Origin: an uncultured Planctomycetota bacterium
GTDB lineage: Bacteria; Planctomycetota; DG-23; CAZBND01
Length of the DNA: 64,000 nt
Reading direction: 5' to 3'
Assembly: GCA_964493415.1 (NCBI GenBank)
Contig: CAZBND010000002.1
Location: 97,678-161,677, forward strand
Within the stretch, counting starts at the first letter, position 1. The number at the start of each line of letters is the position of its first letter. A program made the translations under genes and the position numbers. The notes under the pieces are model-generated. The model saw nothing but the letters and a program-made list of their open reading frames with translations, was not told the origin of the DNA and did not search any database. Positions 14,824 to 64,000 of the stretch are shown here, one piece after another.

Positions 14824-17136
14824 ATGGGCATAAGAAAAATGATCCGAAGCAGGCGTGACGCCTCGCGCGAGCGGCGAAAGAAACGCGCGCCGAGCGCCCG
14901 GCGGCGGGGACGTTTCTTCAGATTCCTCGCCGGAACTCTTGCCGTCTCACTTCTGACCCTCATCATATCCTGGGGAGGGACCCCCCTTGATATCCGTGAG
15001 GGGCAAAGGGCCTCCCGCGACTACCTCTCCCGTGTCGAATTCACTTGGCGCGACGAAGCAAAGACCGCCGCCAATCGAGACCGCGCCGCGGAGAGGGCTC
15101 CCAATGTCTACGACGAGAATCTCTCTTCTCTCAACATCCTTCTGAAGGACCTTGTGGACCTCCTGCGCCAGATCGCCGACCCGGACGAACAACTCCCCGA
15201 AGGAGAGAATCTGGTCGAGAAGTGGGAGCTATCTGACGCCGAACATGCCGTCCTCCGCCGAGCGCTGGAAGACGCCGACTTCTCCAGAGTCGAGTCCGGC
15301 CTTGAAGCCGTCTTCAATAGCCTCCAGGCGCGACAGGTCGTTCAGGAGGCTCGTTACCGCAGGGAACAAGACGAAGGGCACTGGAAGATAAAGGTCCTCA
15401 GCAAGGGAGCGCAGGAGCCGATCGCGGTCGACATGGGGGACCTCATAATCAAAGAGAGGGCCGGAGATGTCCTCTTCTCTGCGCTCTCGCGGCAAAGCCT
15501 TGCTGCATTCCCCGTCGACTTCCGCAACGCTCTTGCATCCCTTATCGCTCGCCGCCTGAAGCCCACCCTGACCTACAACGAGCCGCTGTCCGCAAAGGAG
15601 GAGAAACTGGCTCGCGAAGCCCAGAAAGAGGAACTGCGCACCATCAAGGTCGACGAGGTCCTACTTCGCAGAAATCAGGTGGCGGGATCCGAGCACATCC
15701 AGATCCTTAGAGAAGAAAACCGCATCTTCTGGAGCAGCGTCGAGCCCGCACCCAAGCTCCGACGCATCGCCGGTACGGCGATCACCGTCGCCGTGATCGT
15801 GGGCATCGGTTTCTTCTGCCTCACAAGATTCGGACCTGCCAGCTTATCTGTGCGAGGCGCGTTAGCCTTGGCCGTCATGTGCCTCGGCATCGTCGTCGCC
15901 GCCAGAGCCTTGGCCACCGTTCAACTGACTTACCTCGTCCCCGTCTCCGCCGCCGCAATTGTCTTTGCCATCGTGCTCCCACCGATGTTTGCCGTCGCCG
16001 CAAGCTTCCTGCTCGTCCTTCTGTCGGGTGTGACCCTGTCTTTTGACTTCGCCCTCGTTATGACCTTCCTGGCGGGAAGCGTCGCCGCCATCCTTGGCTC
16101 TCTTCGCATACGCAAGAGAACCAAACTCATAAAGGTTGGGCTGCTCATCGGCATCGTCCAAGCCGCGACCCTCTGGGGAGTATGGCTGGCGACTGAATGG
16201 GCGAGCCTACCCCTTCGCTGGAGCTCGTCTCTCGTGCGCGACTCGGCCTCTGCGCTGGCCTCCGGCATCGGCGTCGGCTTCCTTCTTACAGGAGCGCTCC
16301 CATTCATCGAGCGGCTGTTCAACATAGTCACCGACATCAGCCTGCTTGAACTGTCGGATCAGAATCATCCCTTGCTCAGGAGATTGGTTCTCGAAGCCCC
16401 CGGCACCTACCATCACAGCTTCATCGTGGGTAGCCTGGGCGAGGCCGCGGCGGAGGCCACGGATGCCAACGCCCTCCTTACGCGCATCGGTTCCTACTAC
16501 CATGATATCGGCAAAGTGGCGCGGCCCGACTACTTCGTCGAGAACCAGGCCGGCAAGACCAGCCGCCATGATAAGCTCGCTCCTGCTATGAGTTCGCTCA
16601 TAATAATCTCCCACGTCAAAGAGGGCCTCGAAATGGCTAAGGCGCACGGGCTGCCTCCCAGAATCATTGACTTCATCGCTCAGCACCACGGCAATTCCCT
16701 AGTCGAGTACTTCTATCAGTCCGCACTCAGCCGCAGCAACGGCAACGAAACCGTCCACGACGACGGCTTTCGATACCCCGGCCCTAAACCGCAGACCAAA
16801 GAGGCCGCCATCATTCTCCTTGCCGACGCAGTCGAAGCCGCATCCAGAACCCTTTCTGAGCCGTCTCCTTCACGGATCGAGCGCTTCGTCGACGAAATCA
16901 TCACGAAGCGCCTTGCCGAAGGAGAGTTGGACGAGTCGGGGCTCACTCTCACCGAGATAGGCAGAATCAAGCAGAGCTTCTCCCGCGTCCTTACCGGAAT
17001 CTACCACAGTCGGATAAAGTACCCGAGCGCAAGAGGCAATTCAGAGCGGGGCAGGCATAATGACAAGACCAAGGCCTTCCAGCGGACCCAGCCCTCGACC
17101 CAGACGCACATCTCCCTGGAAGGTTCAGATAAATGA
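14824..17136 (+). CDS. 7TM-HD membrane phosphohydrolase (PgpH/YqfF-like, candidate c-di-AMP phosphodiesterase)
   Basis: N-terminal TM, large extracytoplasmic domain, about 7 TM, APGTYHHS, YYHDIGK, HHG, LADAVEAASR. Confidence 0.9.
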   Translation: MGIRKMIRSRRDASRERRKKRAPSARRRGRFFRFLAGTLAVSLLTLIISWGGTPLDIREGQRASRDYLSRVEFTWRDEAKTAANRDRAAERAPNVYDENLSSLNILLKDLVDLLRQIADPDEQLPEGENLVEKWELSDAEHAVLRRALEDADFSRVESGLEAVFNSLQARQVVQEARYRREQDEGHWKIKVLSKGAQEPIAVDMGDLIIKERAGDVLFSALSRQSLAAFPVDFRNALASLIARRLKPTLTYNEPLSAKEEKLAREAQKEELRTIKVDEVLLRRNQVAGSEHIQILREENRIFWSSVEPAPKLRRIAGTAITVAVIVGIGFFCLTRFGPASLSVRGALALAVMCLGIVVAARALATVQLTYLVPVSAAAIVFAIVLPPMFAVAASFLLVLLSGVTLSFDFALVMTFLAGSVAAILGSLRIRKRTKLIKVGLLIGIVQAATLWGVWLATEWASLPLRWSSSLVRDSASALASGIGVGFLLTGALPFIERLFNIVTDISLLELSDQNHPLLRRLVLEAPGTYHHSFIVGSLGEAAAEATDANALLTRIGSYYHDIGKVARPDYFVENQAGKTSRHDKLAPAMSSLIIISHVKEGLEMAKAHGLPPRIIDFIAQHHGNSLVEYFYQSALSRSNGNETVHDDGFRYPGPKPQTKEAAIILLADAVEAASRTLSEPSPSRIERFVDEIITKRLAEGELDESGLTLTEIGRIKQSFSRVLTGIYHSRIKYPSARGNSERGRHNDKTKAFQRTQPSTQTHISLEGSDK

Positions 17137-58950: not shown

Positions 58951-59415
58951 ATGGAATCACAAGTACGGGTCGACTTTCCCCTTACAACCGCGACCATAGC
59001 CCGTCTCGTACCAGGCCAGGAGATTTTTGAAGCAGTGAAGTCCCTGGCTGCGCGCACATCGTCCGGGCGTCTCGCTATTCTCTCCGGCTTGGGAAGTCTG
59101 ACCGACGTCGTCTTCAGAAATCTCAAGCCCCGTATCGCCAGGCCGGTCTCCTTGGAGAAGACCGCCCCTTTTGAAGGCCCCGGCCCCTACGAGCTCCTCT
59201 CGGTCCAAGGGAATGTCTTGCCGATGGACCAGGAGCAGGTCGTACACATCCATGTCACGCTCGGCACTCCTTCGGGCGAGGTGATCGGGGGGCACCTGTT
59301 CGCCGCGAAGGTCTTTACGACTACCGAGCTGATTTGCGTTGAGCTGCCGCTCAAGTCGTTATTCCGAGAGAGAAGCCCCGTCACGGGGCTGACCGAAATC
59401 GTCTGGAGGGATTAG
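58951..59415 (+). CDS. PPC/DUF296 domain protein
   Basis: RLVPGQEI, LSGLGSL, YELLSVQGN, HIHVTLG, GGHL; start ATG 58951 behind GGAGG. Confidence 0.88.
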   Translation: MESQVRVDFPLTTATIARLVPGQEIFEAVKSLAARTSSGRLAILSGLGSLTDVVFRNLKPRIARPVSLEKTAPFEGPGPYELLSVQGNVLPMDQEQVVHIHVTLGTPSGEVIGGHLFAAKVFTTTELICVELPLKSLFRERSPVTGLTEIVWRD

Positions 59416-59454
59416 GCGGGAAAGTCCGCGGCGGCCGGCCGGCCCGGGGCACCC

Positions 59455-59919
59455 TCAGGACGAAGGTACCTTGCGCACCTTCACCGCGCCTGTGAGGCAG
59501 GCGACGACGCACGCCGGCTCCTCGCCGCGTTCCCATCGACGGGCGCACAGATCGCACTTCAGAACCACTTTGCGCTCTTCGTCCATCCGCAGCGCTCCGA
59601 ACGGGCACGCCTCTATGCACGCGCCGCAGCCGGTACACAGCGCTTCGTCCAGCAGCACAGGTTCGTCGGCGCTCGCTCGCGCAAGCGCGCCCGAAGGGCA
59701 GGCCTCGATGCATGCGGCGTTCTTGCACTGCCTGCACACTATCGGGGTCACCTTCCCCTTGACTACTTCGACCTGGATCCGCGGCTTCGGCGACGGCCTT
59801 TGCCGAATCGAGTCGTAAAGGTTTTCAGAGTCCGAATGCGCGACGGCGCATTCGATTTCACAACGTTTGCACGCTACGCATAAATCTTTCTTCACCGTCA
59901 GCGTTCTACCCACGCGCAT
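59455..59919 (-). CDS. 4Fe-4S dicluster electron transfer protein (CooF/HydN/DmsB-like)
   Basis: CVACKRCEIEC, CRQCKNAACIEACP, CTGCGACIEACP, KCDLC..PACVVAC; start ATG 59919 behind AGGAGG. Confidence 0.9.
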   Translation of the reverse strand: MRVGRTLTVKKDLCVACKRCEIECAVAHSDSENLYDSIRQRPSPKPRIQVEVVKGKVTPIVCRQCKNAACIEACPSGALARASADEPVLLDEALCTGCGACIEACPFGALRMDEERKVVLKCDLCARRWERGEEPACVVACLTGAVKVRKVPSS

Positions 59920-60007
59920 TCCTCCTGAACCGGTCGCAACGCACATGGCCTCAACCCACATCGTACACCGCCCAGCGTTGCAGGTCAACCGCAGCCACCC
60001 GTCCTCT

Positions 60008-61336
60008 TCACAACCGGCTTGCGGCAAGTGACGCGAGTTCGCTCCGCTCGCTTGTCACCAACGTCACATGCCCCACCAGCGGCTCCCCCTTCAGGCGGTC
60101 TGCCGCATAGGTCAGCCCGTTGCTCGTGGCGTCCAGGTAGGGATTGTCTATCTGATACGGGTCGCCCGTCAGCACCACCTTCGTTCCGTCGCCCGCTCTG
60201 CTTATGACCGTCTTCACCTCGTGCGGCGTCAGGTTCTGCGCCTCGTCCACCAGCATGAATTGATCCGGGATGCTCCTGCCCCGAATGTACGTCAGCGCCT
60301 CCAGCGCCAGCTTATCCGTCTCGAAAAGCCTCTCCAGCGGGCTCCCCCGATCATTTTCCTTCCCGTTCTTCCCCTTTCTCTCTTCCCGAGGCGTACCGTG
60401 CAAGATCAGATCGAGGTTGTCGAATATCGGCTCCATCCAGTGCTCCAGCTTCTCCTCTTTCGAACCGGGCAGGTAGCCTATGTCGCTTCCCATCGGAATT
60501 ATCGGCCTAGACACCAGCACCCTCTTGTACGCTCGCTCTTTCAGGCACTTGTGTAGAGCGCACGCCAGCGCAATCAGCGTCTTCCCTGTTCCCGCTTGCC
60601 CTACCAGCGTGACCAGTCTCACCTCCTCCTTCAGCAAAAGCTCCATTGCCATTGTCTGCTGTATGTTCCTTGGGCGGATCCCGTACACGGCGCCCCCTTC
60701 GTACTCTAACGCCACCGCGCGTCCGTTCCCCTCGTACCTGACCATCGTCTCCTTGCCCGCGCCCCCGCTGTCTTTCGCCAGTATGAACTGATTCGGAAGG
60801 AACTCTCCCTCCAATGTCACCTCGCCCTTCTCCTTCAATTCCGAAATCTGGCTACCGGAGAACTCCGCCTCCGACCAGCCCGAATACAGCCGCTCGAAAT
60901 CGACCTTCTGCTTCTCGAAATCCACCGCCTTTATCCCCAGCGAATCGGCCCTTATCCGCGCGTTGATGTCTTTCGACACGAACACCGCCGTTTGCCCCGA
61001 ATTCATCAGCTCGTACGCGACCGAGATTATCCTGTTGTCCGCCGTGTCCGCATGGAGCATCGCTGGCATGCCTTCCTCCGACGGAAAGGCGACACGGAGC
61101 GTTCCTCCCGTCTCGTCTATCGGAACCCCCTCCTTTAGATGTCCCTTCGACCTCAGCTCGTCCATCTTTCTGATCGCCGCCCGCGCATTCCTACCCAGCT
61201 CGTTGTTCTCTTTCTTGAACGTGTCCATCTCTTCCAGCACGTCGATCGGGATTACCACCTCGTTGTCTGCGAATGACGTCAACGCGGCAGCGTTATGGAG
61301 TAGCACGTTCGTGTCAAGGACGAAACTCTTCTTCAT
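60008..61336 (-). CDS. PIN-PhoH fusion (PhoH2/YlaK type)
   Basis: FVLDTNVLLH PIN motif, ADNRI, SKDINAR, GQAGTGKT, YIRGRSI, DEAQNLT; start ATG 61336. Confidence 0.93.
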   Translation of the reverse strand: MKKSFVLDTNVLLHNAAALTSFADNEVVIPIDVLEEMDTFKKENNELGRNARAAIRKMDELRSKGHLKEGVPIDETGGTLRVAFPSEEGMPAMLHADTADNRIISVAYELMNSGQTAVFVSKDINARIRADSLGIKAVDFEKQKVDFERLYSGWSEAEFSGSQISELKEKGEVTLEGEFLPNQFILAKDSGGAGKETMVRYEGNGRAVALEYEGGAVYGIRPRNIQQTMAMELLLKEEVRLVTLVGQAGTGKTLIALACALHKCLKERAYKRVLVSRPIIPMGSDIGYLPGSKEEKLEHWMEPIFDNLDLILHGTPREERKGKNGKENDRGSPLERLFETDKLALEALTYIRGRSIPDQFMLVDEAQNLTPHEVKTVISRAGDGTKVVLTGDPYQIDNPYLDATSNGLTYAADRLKGEPLVGHVTLVTSERSELASLAASRL

Positions 61337-61539
61337 CTCGCACCCCTTCTTGGTCACAAGCATTTCAGACCCATCTGAACCACCGATTCTAATCTCCATC
61401 CGTGCCCTCCACAAGCGACTGCCCGCAGGCGTCTTCGCACACGTCCCGGCCCTGGGGCATTCGTTAGCCCGGTCGCGCACGCCTTGGAAGGGGAGGGGCT
61501 TCGTCATCGTCGCAGCCCCCGTCTTTTTTCAAAATTCCC

Positions 61540-61568
61540 TTGACGAAGCCGGTGTCACCTTTTACACT
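61540..61568 (+). promoter_or_regulatory. sigma70 promoter of the Rrf2-cysE-DUF39 operon
   Basis: TTGACG, 17 nt spacer, TACACT. Confidence 0.65.
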
Positions 61569-61602
61569 TTTTCTATAGCAATGGTGGGAAAGGACGGAGC
61601 AG

Positions 61603-62046
61603 TTGAAGATCTCTACGCGGGCTAGGTATGGCGTGAGGGCTCTCATTGACATGGCCGGACAAGATTCTGACCAGCCAATCCAGCTCAAGGACATAGCTTG
61701 GCGACAGGAGATTTCTGTGAAGTATCTCGAGCAGATTTTCGCGCAGCTGCGTACCTCGGGCCTCGTTCGCGGCGTCCGGGGACCTCGCGGCGGCTATCTC
61801 CTGTCAAAATCTCCCGAATCCATGAGCATCTGCGAAGTCGTCGAAGCTCTTGATGGTTCGCTTTCGCTCGTCGACTGCGTTGACGACCCTTCCGCCTGCC
61901 ATAGGTCCCAAGGGTGTCCGTCCCGCAGGGTTTGGGCTGAGGTCAGTGGCGCGTTGCGCGACAACCTCGCTTCGATCTCGGTTGCCGACATGGGCATGCC
62001 CCCGGCCAAGGGCCGGGCACCGCGTCGAAAGCGCGCTTCGACGTAA
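61603..62046 (+). CDS. Rrf2 family transcriptional regulator (IscR/CymR-like, three Cys)
   Basis: MKISTRARYGVRAL, SVKYLEQIF, VRGPRGGYLL, CVDDPSACHRSQGC. Confidence 0.93.
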   Translation: MKISTRARYGVRALIDMAGQDSDQPIQLKDIAWRQEISVKYLEQIFAQLRTSGLVRGVRGPRGGYLLSKSPESMSICEVVEALDGSLSLVDCVDDPSACHRSQGCPSRRVWAEVSGALRDNLASISVADMGMPPAKGRAPRRKRAST

Positions 62047-62255
62047 CCATTCCCCGGGCCTTTGGCCTGGACCTCCTTCGCGATCCCTGGTGGAAATCGA
62101 AGGGTGGTCGTGTTGCTCCGGTTGCGCGCATGGAGACTAACTGTGCACCGCTTGTCCCCCTTGCGGATCAAATCTGGTACACGAACTTTCGCTGGCGAGG
62201 TGTTTGTTGGTACGGTATCCTGATAAAGGAATAACGTAGAAAGGGGCGTGCTTCC

Positions 62256-62909
62256 CTGTTCAAAAGGATCTCCGAGGACGTTAGGAATGTCTTTGCTCGT
62301 GACCCCGCGGCTAAGTCGGTGCTCGAGGTGCTCACATGCTATCCTGGGCTCCATGCCATCTGGATTCATAGAGTAGCCCACTTGCTCTGGCGTGCTCGCC
62401 TTAGGTTGCTCGCCAGGTTCATCTCGCACCTGGGACGCTTTCTGACCGGCATCGAGATTCATCCGGGGGCTAAAATTGGCCGGCGTGTCTTTATCGACCA
62501 CGGCGCCGGCGTCGTTATCGGAGAGACTTCAGAGATTGGCGACGACGTCGTCCTCTATCAGGGCGTTGTCCTCGGAGGCACGTCCATGGAGAAGAAGAAA
62601 CGGCACCCCACAATCGGTCACAACGTTGTCGTCGGCGCAGGAGCCATTCTCCTTGGCGCTGTTGATATCGCCGATGGCGCAAAGGTCGGCGCTGGCTCCG
62701 TCGTCGTGCACTCGGTGCCCGTCGGAACTACCGTCGTCGGCATACCTGCAAGACCGGTGGAGACGCGCACAAAGCTCGACCTCGACCTCGACCACGGCAA
62801 GCTTCCCGACCCTATCGCCGAGGCAATAAGGACAGTCCTCGACGAGCAGCAAAAGCTGCGCGATCGCATAGCTCAGCTCGAACGGATAATCGGGCAAAAA
62901 GGCGGATAG
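62256..62909 (+). CDS. cysE: serine O-acetyltransferase
   Basis: [39 protein letters not shown]; conserved N-terminus extends to CTG 62256. Confidence 0.95.
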
Positions 62910-62953
62910 CGCTTGTCGCCTCATGCCTCTTGGTATGCTGGAAGGAGGTGGTG

Positions 62954-63049
62954 ATGATGTTATGGATTATGCGTAGCCCGCATCGGCCGCAGCGTACAAG
63001 TGTGTGTTCACATCACCGCTTTCTCTACCAGGAGGAAACAGATGCCTAA
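62954..63049 (+). other. candidate leader peptide (31 aa, MMLWIM...) in a structured 5' leader
   Basis: AAGGAGGTG SD 5 nt before ATGATG; TAA overlaps the DUF39 ATG; 14 bp stem 62943-62956 with 63011-63024. Confidence 0.45.
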
Positions 63050-64000
63050 GACCATAAGCGAGATAAACGAACGAATCCGAAAGCGTCAGGCCGTCGTCGT
63101 CACAGCCGAAGAAATCATCGACATCGTCGATGAGAAGGGCATAGACGCCGCCGCCAAAGAGGTCGATGTCGTCACCACGGGCACCTTCGGACCCATGTGT
63201 TCCTCCGGTGCCTACTTCAACATCGGCCACTCCAAGCCCAGGATCAAGCTGGGCGGCGGGCATGTGCGCCTTAACGCCGTCCCGGCCTACGCCGGTTTCG
63301 CAGCCGTCGACCTCTACGTCGGCGCAACCGCCATCCCCGATGACGACCCACGCAACAAGGTGTTCCCAGGGGAGTTCAGCTACGGAGGCGGCCACGTGAT
63401 TCAGGACCTCGTTGGAGGCAAGGACATCGTCCTCGAAGCTACCGCCTACGGCACCGACTGCTATCCGCGGAAAAGGCTTCGAACGCTCATCAGCATCCGC
63501 GACCTCAATGAGGCCGTGCTCTTCAACCCGAGGAATGTCTACCAAAACTACAACATCGCCGTCAACCTCTCCGACAAGGTGATCTACACCTACATGGGGG
63601 CTCTCAAGCCCAACCTCGGCAACGCCAACTACTGCAGCGCCGGACAGCTCTCCCCCCTTCTCAACGACCCTCACTACAAGACCATAGGGATCGGCACCCG
63701 GATGTTTCTTGGCGGAGGGGTCGGTTACGTCGCTTGGCAGGGAACCCAGCACAACCCCACCGTCAAGCGCAAGCCCAACGGCGTTCCCGAAGCACCCGCG
63801 GGCACGCTCGCGCTCATCGGGGACCTCAAGGGAATGAGCCCGGACTGGCTCGTCGGCACCAGCTTCCGCGGTTACGGTGTTACCCTCACCGTCGGCGTAG
63901 GCATTCCCATCCCCATCCTGGACGAAACCATCTGCAAGTTCACTTCCGTCCGTGATGAGGAGCTTTCAGCCAAGATCGTCGACTACAGCAACGCCTATCC
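63042..64000 (+). CDS. homocysteine biosynthesis protein (DUF39, MA1821/MJ0100-like), truncated at right edge
   Basis: Absent from the ORF track; hand translation MPKTISEINERIRKRQAVVVTAEE..DVVTTGTFGPMCSSGA..YGGGHVIQDL..YGTDCYPR..PRNVYQNYN..LSPLLNDP. Confidence 0.9.
   Translation, partial: MPKTISEINERIRKRQAVVVTAEEIIDIVDEKGIDAAAKEVDVVTTGTFGPMCSSGAYFNIGHSKPRIKLGGGHVRLNAVPAYAGFAAVDLYVGATAIPDDDPRNKVFPGEFSYGGGHVIQDLVGGKDIVLEATAYGTDCYPRKRLRTLISIRDLNEAVLFNPRNVYQNYNIAVNLSDKVIYTYMGALKPNLGNANYCSAGQLSPLLNDPHYKTIGIGTRMFLGGGVGYVAWQGTQHNPTVKRKPNGVPEAPAGTLALIGDLKGMSPDWLVGTSFRGYGVTLTVGVGIPIPILDETICKFTSVRDEELSAKIVDYSNAY

Follow-up and report, generated by a model that had tools for sequence, protein, structure and literature searches.

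A six-gene operon for sulfur metabolism, headed by an Rrf2-family regulator, runs off the 3΄ end of a 64 000-nt stretch of an uncultured Planctomycetota genome (G000:C2:97678-161677; this whole stretch is hereafter called the window). The genes that follow the regulator encode the serine O-acetyltransferase CysE, the DUF39 protein HcyBio, a ferredoxin with an NIL domain (NIL-ferredoxin), a ThiF/MoeB-type adenylyltransferase and a NifS-type cysteine desulfurase. We consider it probable that this operon is repressed by its own Rrf2 protein, that ThiF and NifS serve as general sulfur mobilisers and that a short translated leader provides separate control of HcyBio. The window operon is a rearranged and partly decayed local member of a widespread operon type. 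The genome (G000) comprises 97 contigs and is 91% complete; the rest of the contig was read as locus L003 (window coordinate = L003 + 61322). For comparison we used the sole genome of the same family (G001), the closest outgroup locus (L023) and 80 related loci from a scan of species genomes, in which HcyBio is 70-78% identical to the window protein. These loci span about ten phyla, including Omnitrophota, uncultured Planctomycetia, Atribacterota, Dehalococcoidia/Chloroflexota, Desulfobacteraceae, Nitrospirota, Spirochaetota, Aerophobetes, Desantisbacteria and Clostridia.

The operon occupies ~5.3 kb of the + strand, with one promoter and one terminator. An initial annotation of the window had named Rrf2, cysE and DUF39 behind a single promoter; all three genes were recovered at their positions by domain and family profile matches, and a single sigma-70-like site indeed stands ahead of both the cysteine and the homocysteine genes, whereas ThiF, NifS and the leader had been overlooked. 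This promoter (61540-61568; L003 218-246) consists of a -35 box TTGACG (61540-61545), a 17-nt spacer and a -10 box TACACT (61563-61568), scored 9 of 12 matches and was the only promoter-like match on the + strand 5΄ of the operon genes (4 matches in 6 kb, versus 1.0 expected). A TTGACA-16/17-TATA(A/C)T-like promoter was found at the equivalent place, 5΄ of the Rrf2 gene, in 33 of 35 related loci. The intergenic gaps measure 78 nt between HcyBio and NIL-ferredoxin, 5 nt between NIL-ferredoxin and ThiF and 2 nt between ThiF and NifS. A terminator-like hairpin with a T-rich tail (L003 5561-5583, + strand) overlaps the NifS stop codon, and the next promoter-like site past it belongs to the following gene.

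The regulator (147 aa, TTG start; 61603-62046, + strand) matched the Rrf2 family profile PF02082 with E = 2e-38. It had been described as a three-Cys protein, which held: four Cys are present in total and three of them, C92, C99 and C105, are conserved, being kept in 36 of the 37 Rrf2 proteins preceding HcyBio that we aligned. These residues align with the substituted ligand positions of Thermincola potens IscR (4CIC; Ser) and Escherichia coli IscR (4HF0; Ala), both of which we take to be triple Cys mutants. The best solved-structure match of the window protein was 4CIC (95 bits), and its scores fell below the cut-offs of both the IscR model (TIGR02010, 124 bits versus 207.55) and the CymR model (NF047409, 110.6 bits versus 195). 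The CymR chains 2Y75 and 3T8R have no Cys at the three ligand positions.

A C-terminal aromatic-x-Ile tail, such as MYYI or VYQI, was present in 35 of the 37 aligned proteins. The C-termini of these relatives are of the GYM(F/Y)YI type, as in Gram-positive IscR/CymR-like Rrf2 proteins; the chains of Staphylococcus aureus CymR, of T. potens IscR and of 3LWF (a 159-residue 'putative transcriptional regulator') reach GYM(F/Y)Y at the last-but-one residue. The C-terminal decapeptide of CymR is EDLDGYMFYI, and crystallography and binding assays showed that the C-terminal peptide of S. aureus CymR inserts into the active site of CysK (bioRxiv 10.1101/2024.09.19.614015). Tail and adjacent cysK went together: 34 of the 37 regulators had both, one had the tail without cysK, none had cysK without the tail and two, including that of the window, had neither. 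Related genomes are not independent samples, so that the association describes a pattern and carries no statistical claim. In G001, the Rrf2 protein ends in NYSI and its gene retains an adjacent cysK. What is new here, as far as the alignments indicate, is that the Rrf2 proteins of HcyBio operons unite IscR-type Cys ligands with a CymR-type tail. We found no study of the regulator heading these operons in the literature.

The window regulator has two sets of known counterparts. T. potens IscR has the same three Cys ligand positions, and Gram-positive IscR/CymR-like regulators of this kind (4CIC; Clostridium perfringens Cpe1786, PMC2940859) head iscS-iscU, just as the window operon ends in a NifS/IscS-type desulfurase. 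Unlike those operons, however, the window has cysteine and homocysteine genes between the regulator and NifS, and neither NifU nor IscU after NifS; its regulator also differs from T. potens IscR in having no tail and in scoring under the cut-off of the curated IscR model. CymR of Bacillus subtilis and S. aureus, which forms a co-repressor complex with CysK, has the Rrf2 fold in common and likewise controls cysteine-pathway genes. The CysK-docking type of tail and the cysK gene next to the regulator are CymR-like features of 35 of the 37 relatives, whereas the possession of all three ligand Cys sets the family apart from CymR, and the window copy has neither the tail nor an adjacent cysK.

Immediately 3΄ of the -10 box lies a degenerate inverted repeat (61571-61594, + strand), a putative operator. 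In ~35 loci a conserved inverted repeat directly follows the -10 box, with the form CTACTA-N5-ATAGAGATTATAG or CCTAC-N7-RTAGG; the latter also occurs among relatives in a fuller form, CCTAC-N7-RTAGG-AT-AGG. The corresponding site of G001 reads CCTAC-N7-GTAGG. Since the operator-like site abuts the -10 box, repression and autoregulation at this position are implied.

The cysE gene (62256-62909, + strand) encodes 217 aa when read from CTG and matched the serine O-acetyltransferase model TIGR01172 with 237.4 bits (cut-off 210.65), model positions 1-162 falling on residues 5-166; its C-terminal residue is not Ile. The score exceeded the cut-off only with the CTG start at 62256, which lies 9 nt 3΄ of AAAGGGG. 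From the in-frame stop at 62232-62234 up to position 62319, the frame offers no ATG, GTG or TTG. Starting at GTG 62319 would cost the protein its first 21 residues, of which the model matches 17, so that a full-length CysE needs CTG 62256. Upstream of cysE, a 209-nt spacer (62047-62255, + strand) takes the place that cysK has in relatives. The gene order in G001 is Rrf2-cysK-cysE-HcyBio-NIL-ThiF-NifS (61-84% identity to the window chain), with cysK between Rrf2 and cysE, and the outgroup locus L023 has Rrf2-cysK-HcyBio. Because both have the Rrf2-cysK order, cysK was most likely lost in the window lineage; compared with G001, which keeps all three features, the window appears to be a derived form that has lost cysK, the Rrf2 tail and part of the operator. 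We detected no remnant of cysK in the 209-nt spacer, which also gave no Rfam match and no promoter-like site. That cysE has no standard start may reflect a scar left when cysK was lost, or else an error in the assembly. The initial annotation had suggested looking for cysK in the following part of the contig, where it is absent; contig C10 carries CysK (TIGR01139, 451 bits) and a CysM-type enzyme, apart from the operon. We also noted, within the Rrf2-cysE spacer, a 13-nt block CCTGGTGGAAATC (62086-62098), 12 of whose 13 positions are common with the Rrf2-cysK spacer of G001.

HcyBio (63042-64000 and beyond the window; L003 1720-2931, + strand) is a COG1900a-type protein of 403 aa, a predicted L-aspartate-semialdehyde sulfurtransferase subunit, which matched PF01837 over the entire profile (positions 1-349 of 349; E = 4.5e-154, 513 bits) and has no CBS domains. 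The ferredoxin partner whose absence would have spoken against this assignment was found 78 nt downstream, directly 3΄ of HcyBio, as a 135-aa NIL+2x[4Fe-4S] ferredoxin (L003 3010-3417, + strand; PF09383, E = 5.4e-16, with two Fer4 motifs). Cys residues C53 and C140 of HcyBio are invariant in 95 of 95 homologues, both paralogues of this genome included. Cys54 and Cys131 of MA1821 are near-universal in COG1900a-type proteins (PMC12068725); the window residues were equated with them by position only. A sequence search of the structure database gave no solved structure matching HcyBio. DUF39 and NIL-ferredoxin are genetically required for homocysteine synthesis in Desulfovibrio and Methanosarcina (PMC5764234, PMC12068725), and their presence in bacteria (Desulfovibrio, Dehalococcoides) has been known since 2014-2018 (PMC4045070, PMC5764234). 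The systems MA1821/MA1822 of Methanosarcina acetivorans, that of Desulfovibrio vulgaris Miyazaki F (DvMF_1464, DvMF_0262 and DvMF_0044, i.e. DUF39, NIL/ferredoxin and COG2122) and Dehalococcoides DET0921-0919 have the same combination of PF01837 and an adjacent NIL+2x[4Fe-4S] ferredoxin. The two invariant Cys and the lack of a match to an acyl-homoserine route in the genome are further points in common with L-aspartate-semialdehyde sulfurtransferases, whose bacterial forms likewise have no CBS domains. On this basis, the window HcyBio and NIL-ferredoxin are predicted to form such an enzyme, a homocysteine synthase of the sulfide type known from methanogens and anaerobic bacteria. They differ from the Desulfovibrio set in that the window operon contains no COG2122 (UPF0280) gene, the one in this genome sitting with a paralogous set on contig C4, and from known DUF39 systems in the linkage of HcyBio to cysE, ThiF, NifS and Rrf2 and in the upstream open reading frame (ORF) leader that precedes it.

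We further searched the genome for the canonical routes to homocysteine. MetA (PF04204), MetX (TIGR01392) and MetE gave no match in the 91%-complete genome, and neither did MetB, MetC, MetY or MetZ; the only two PF01053 hits were marginal and proved on inspection to be an aspartate aminotransferase and a PseC-type sugar aminotransferase. Homoserine dehydrogenase (Hom) and MetH-type methyltransferase domains are present. With no match to MetA, MetX, MetB/C/Y/Z or MetE, it is plausible that homocysteine is made without homoserine acylation, as had been proposed for the DUF39 route. This part of the proposal stood, including the lack of metA, metX and metY matches, whereas the DUF39 gene of the operon is not the sole candidate. 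The paralogous set on contig C4 (L004 6999-9357; G000:C4:40998-43356) comprises an HcyBio 63% identical to that of the window, a NIL-ferredoxin and, between their genes, a COG2122-like protein (NF003323, 269 bits versus a cut-off of 271); PRK04334 we take to be COG2122. This type of set is conserved in G001 and other same-phylum genomes. Contig C25 carries a chain (L131 2362-10015; G000:C25:33361-41014) of Rrf2, APS/PAPS reductase, ATP sulfurylase, a ThrC-like protein, a ThiS::NIL fusion, ThiF, a JAB protease, a CysM-like protein and a small sulfite reductase. The Rrf2 protein of this chain has a tail, VYHI, and no ligand Cys, and is accordingly CymR-like. By gene content, the cluster resembles the MetM/MetO/MoeZ/Mec homocysteine route and the CysO/CysM cysteine route; the MetO/MoeZ/Mec/MetM thiocarboxylate route to homocysteine is listed in GapMind 2026 (PMC13759103).

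The two last genes of the operon encode a ThiF/MoeB-type E1 adenylyltransferase (338 aa; L003 3423-4439, + strand; PF00899, 252 bits) and a NifS-type cysteine desulfurase (379 aa; L003 4442-5581, + strand; Aminotran_5, PF00266, 272 bits). The former scored below the cut-off of TIGR02356 (240 bits versus 275); in an alignment with E. coli ThiF (1ZUD), it has the GxGxxG nucleotide loop, both CxxC pairs and the conserved Cys, presumably Cys184 of the E. coli protein. The latter, below the cut-off of TIGR03402 (477.5 bits versus 530.75), belongs to the class-V desulfurases of NifS/IscS type. Elsewhere in the genome, contig C14 encodes ThiS-ThiG with no ThiF, the only other ThiF homologue belonging to the C25 cluster, and contig C19 has a complete NifU-NifS pair. 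No ThiS-like carrier is encoded in the window operon, and almost none was found near HcyBio in 95 loci, which weakens the idea of a thiocarboxylate donor. Because ThiS-ThiG has no ThiF of its own, NifU-NifS is found elsewhere and a ThiS-like carrier is lacking, ThiF and NifS are best read as co-regulated general sulfur mobilisers; a role for them in homocysteine synthesis itself is conjectural.

Between cysE and HcyBio lies a leader (62942-63049, + strand) with a strong Shine-Dalgarno (SD) sequence AAGGAGGTG (62942-62950) and a 31-codon upstream ORF (62954-63049), which begins with MMLWIM and whose TAA overlaps the HcyBio ATG. In both the window and G001, the SD and start of this ORF are paired in a long stem with a segment just 5΄ of the SD and AUG of HcyBio; the folding energies were -40.9 kcal/mol (z -1.7) and -48.2 kcal/mol (z -2.3), respectively. 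The core of the leader, namely an SD, an in-frame start and NUA-UGK-AUY-AUG, was found in 22 loci of several phyla, always directly 5΄ of HcyBio, with the peptide core [LIV][WC][ILC]M and, in all 22, a hairpin 3-5 nt past the Met codon. The motif occurs once in the genome. Rfam searches of 59000-64000 (E up to 1) and 62900-63060 (E up to 10) gave no riboswitch and no T-box. As in ermC-type attenuation and trpL-like attenuators, a short leader is translated, the regulatory codon matches the end product of the pathway and the position of the ribosome on the leader would set the pairing of the downstream ribosome-binding site. The leader differs from these in that just one internal Met codon is conserved, the window version has no terminator, the upstream ORF ends in a stop codon that runs into the HcyBio start and the leader matches no Rfam family. 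We found no published methionine example of such leader attenuation.

To examine how general this arrangement is, we mapped the neighbours of HcyBio in the related loci with the proteins of G000 itself, restricting each count to loci with sufficient flank. Rrf2 was upstream on the same strand in 33 of 54 loci and cysK directly upstream in 40 of 64, while NIL-ferredoxin (54/73), NifS (17/56) and COG2122 (14/56) were found downstream; cysE and ThiF recurred in several lineages. The common order was Rrf2-cysK-HcyBio-NIL-ferredoxin, then LarE, COG2122 or cysE, then NifS, often followed by NifU. In Omnitrophota, a gene of ~800 nt between NIL-ferredoxin and NifS encodes LarE (TIGR00268, 324 bits). 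Thus, the 'hybrid' operon that the initial annotation had regarded as unusual is no oddity: linkage with cysK, cysE and Rrf2 is the commonest context among close HcyBio homologues. The operon type is the iscR-iscS-iscU layout of anaerobes, into which genes for cysteine and homocysteine synthesis have been inserted. Among the 61 same-phylum genomes searched (G000 included), 12 have an HcyBio. In a midpoint-rooted FastTree phylogeny, the C4-type copies fell in a clade of same-phylum genomes, and the window and G001 copies were placed with L023 among Omnitrophota- and Atribacterota-rich sequences; this placement suggests that the Rrf2-headed operon was acquired horizontally. As a separate observation, many Omnitrophota loci (L026, L030, L037, L040, L043, L046 and others) have a small Nfu-type gene, corresponding to the C-terminal domain of NifU, between cysK and HcyBio, directly upstream of the latter, and NifU after NifS, so that genes for iron-sulfur (Fe-S) assembly are interspersed with amino-acid genes there.

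In the model that we favor, CysE would make O-acetylserine for cysteine synthesis, with CysK supplied from another locus, and HcyBio with NIL-ferredoxin would convert aspartate semialdehyde and reduced sulfur to homocysteine without acylated homoserine. ThiF and NifS would mobilise sulfur through thiocarboxylate and persulfide chemistry, which could serve ThiS-ThiG among others, under common regulation with the amino-acid genes. Rrf2 would repress its own operon through the operator abutting the -10 box. Across the wider family of such operon-heading regulators two inputs can be envisaged, a three-Cys site, which probably holds an Fe-S cluster, and a CysK-docking CymR-type tail; the window copy would retain the Cys site alone. 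The sensing of Fe-S or sulfide status that the initial annotation proposed is conjectural. A ribosome paused at the Met codon of the leader would keep the 5΄ arm open and thereby free the ribosome site of HcyBio, which would place a methionine-specific control on the homocysteine branch only, downstream of cysE.

Several observations weigh against parts of this model. The position of His107 of IscR is Arg108 in the window Rrf2 and His in some relatives, so that the fourth ligand is ambiguous. The window protein ends in RKRAST, a basic, non-Ile end without the aromatic-x-Ile tail, and its operator-like site reads TCTAT-N7-GTGGG, with both half-sites altered relative to G001 and the consensus; with these degenerate half-sites and without the CysK-docking tail, the operon may be repressed weakly or not at all. 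In addition, cysE has no standard start codon, the contig C4 and C25 sets are two further candidate routes to homocysteine, a genome that is 91% complete falls short of proving that the canonical genes are absent, and the repeated occurrence of an adenylating enzyme (ThiF or LarE) with NifS beside HcyBio and NIL-ferredoxin could reflect more than co-regulation. The points on the regulator would fit a decayed system in which Rrf2 no longer controls the operon, expression is constitutive and the leader alone regulates HcyBio, the more so as a genome-wide search for further operator-like sites gave none convincing and a separate CymR-like Rrf2 heads the C25 sulfur cluster. We nevertheless regard such decay as unlikely, because the window Rrf2 has an intact reading frame and DNA-binding region and retains all three Cys, and because 19 of 29 positions of the operator region are still common with G001 (a hand count from two sequences). 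Moreover, an Rrf2 repressor needs no tail to be fully functional, as Fe-S-only members such as E. coli IscR show.

The recurrence of ThiF and NifS is also open to a reading in which NifS draws sulfur from cysteine and, with the ATP-dependent ThiF, delivers it in persulfide or thiocarboxylate form to the conserved Cys of the window HcyBio. The operon would then amount to a transsulfuration free of cystathionine, with cysteine made via CysE, and the second HcyBio set would use free sulfide through COG2122. The 5- and 2-nt gaps by which ThiF and NifS trail the NIL-ferredoxin gene fit this, as does the slot after NIL-ferredoxin, filled by ThiF, LarE or COG2122 according to lineage and often followed by NifS; COG2122 is lacking in the window set and present in the paralogous set, and MA1821 is cited in PMC5764234 as bearing a persulfide in vivo. 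We consider a dedicated relay improbable, however, given the scarcity of ThiS-like carriers noted above, the NifU that follows NifS in many relatives as in an ordinary Fe-S assembly pair, the need of ThiS-ThiG for a ThiF and the occurrence of close HcyBio homologues in both contexts without separate clades. A broader proposal, possible and at present doubtful, would combine such sulfur transfer with a so far undescribed dual-input Rrf2 class bridging IscR and CymR, of which the window is an uncoupled variant. Its inputs would be a three-Cys sensor of Fe-S (or of sulfide or persulfide) and a CysK-docking tail released by O-acetylserine, and one operator would govern cysteine synthesis, homocysteine synthesis and Fe-S assembly; the window would have lost the tail, cysK and part of the operator together, and its HcyBio may take sulfur from cysteine via NifS and ThiF, the paralogue using sulfide via COG2122. 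Finally, COG1900 members vary in substrate (PMC12068725) and one genome holds two HcyBio paralogues that are 63% identical, so the window HcyBio could conceivably thiolate a different aldehyde, as MMP16 does for coenzyme M. This is very improbable, since the protein is 70-78% identical to Dehalococcoidia and Omnitrophota HcyBio in the usual context of NIL-ferredoxin and COG2122, retains both family-wide Cys, has no inserted ferredoxin domain, scores only 116 bits with the marker-16 model (cut-off 364) and is preceded by a leader with a Met codon.

The wider interest of the operon lies in the fact that the DUF39 route is the sole homocysteine-synthesis candidate in many uncultured anaerobes. 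The present locus and its ~80 relatives offer a defined promoter-operator and a regulator in which two sensor features can be recognised, and they vary naturally in whether they have cysK, the tail, COG2122, LarE, ThiF and NifS. The census also cautions against labelling such genomes methionine auxotrophs, and shows that a single genome can contain three non-canonical candidate routes to homocysteine.

Some features adjoining the operon were also noted. On the - strand, divergent from it, the window encodes a PIN-PhoH fusion protein (60008-61507), whose upstream region and the Rrf2 promoter occupy a common 95-nt intergenic stretch. The 78-nt spacer between HcyBio and NIL-ferredoxin contains a perfect 14-bp G+C-rich hairpin without a T-tract (L003 2941-2974), and G001 has a different G+C-rich hairpin at this spacer; the element could serve in processing or stability. 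Directly 3΄ of the terminator, a strong promoter-like site of its own (TTGAAG-16-TATAAT) precedes the gene of an 892-aa protein (L003 5642-8320), which has no Pfam match and, by eye, an N-terminal hydrophobic signal-like stretch. On contig C18 (~15980-16010), a perfect palindrome TTCTGGTA-N6-TACCAGAA lies over the -10 box of a third Rrf2 gene (start ~16042) and is probably the operator of that paralogue itself.

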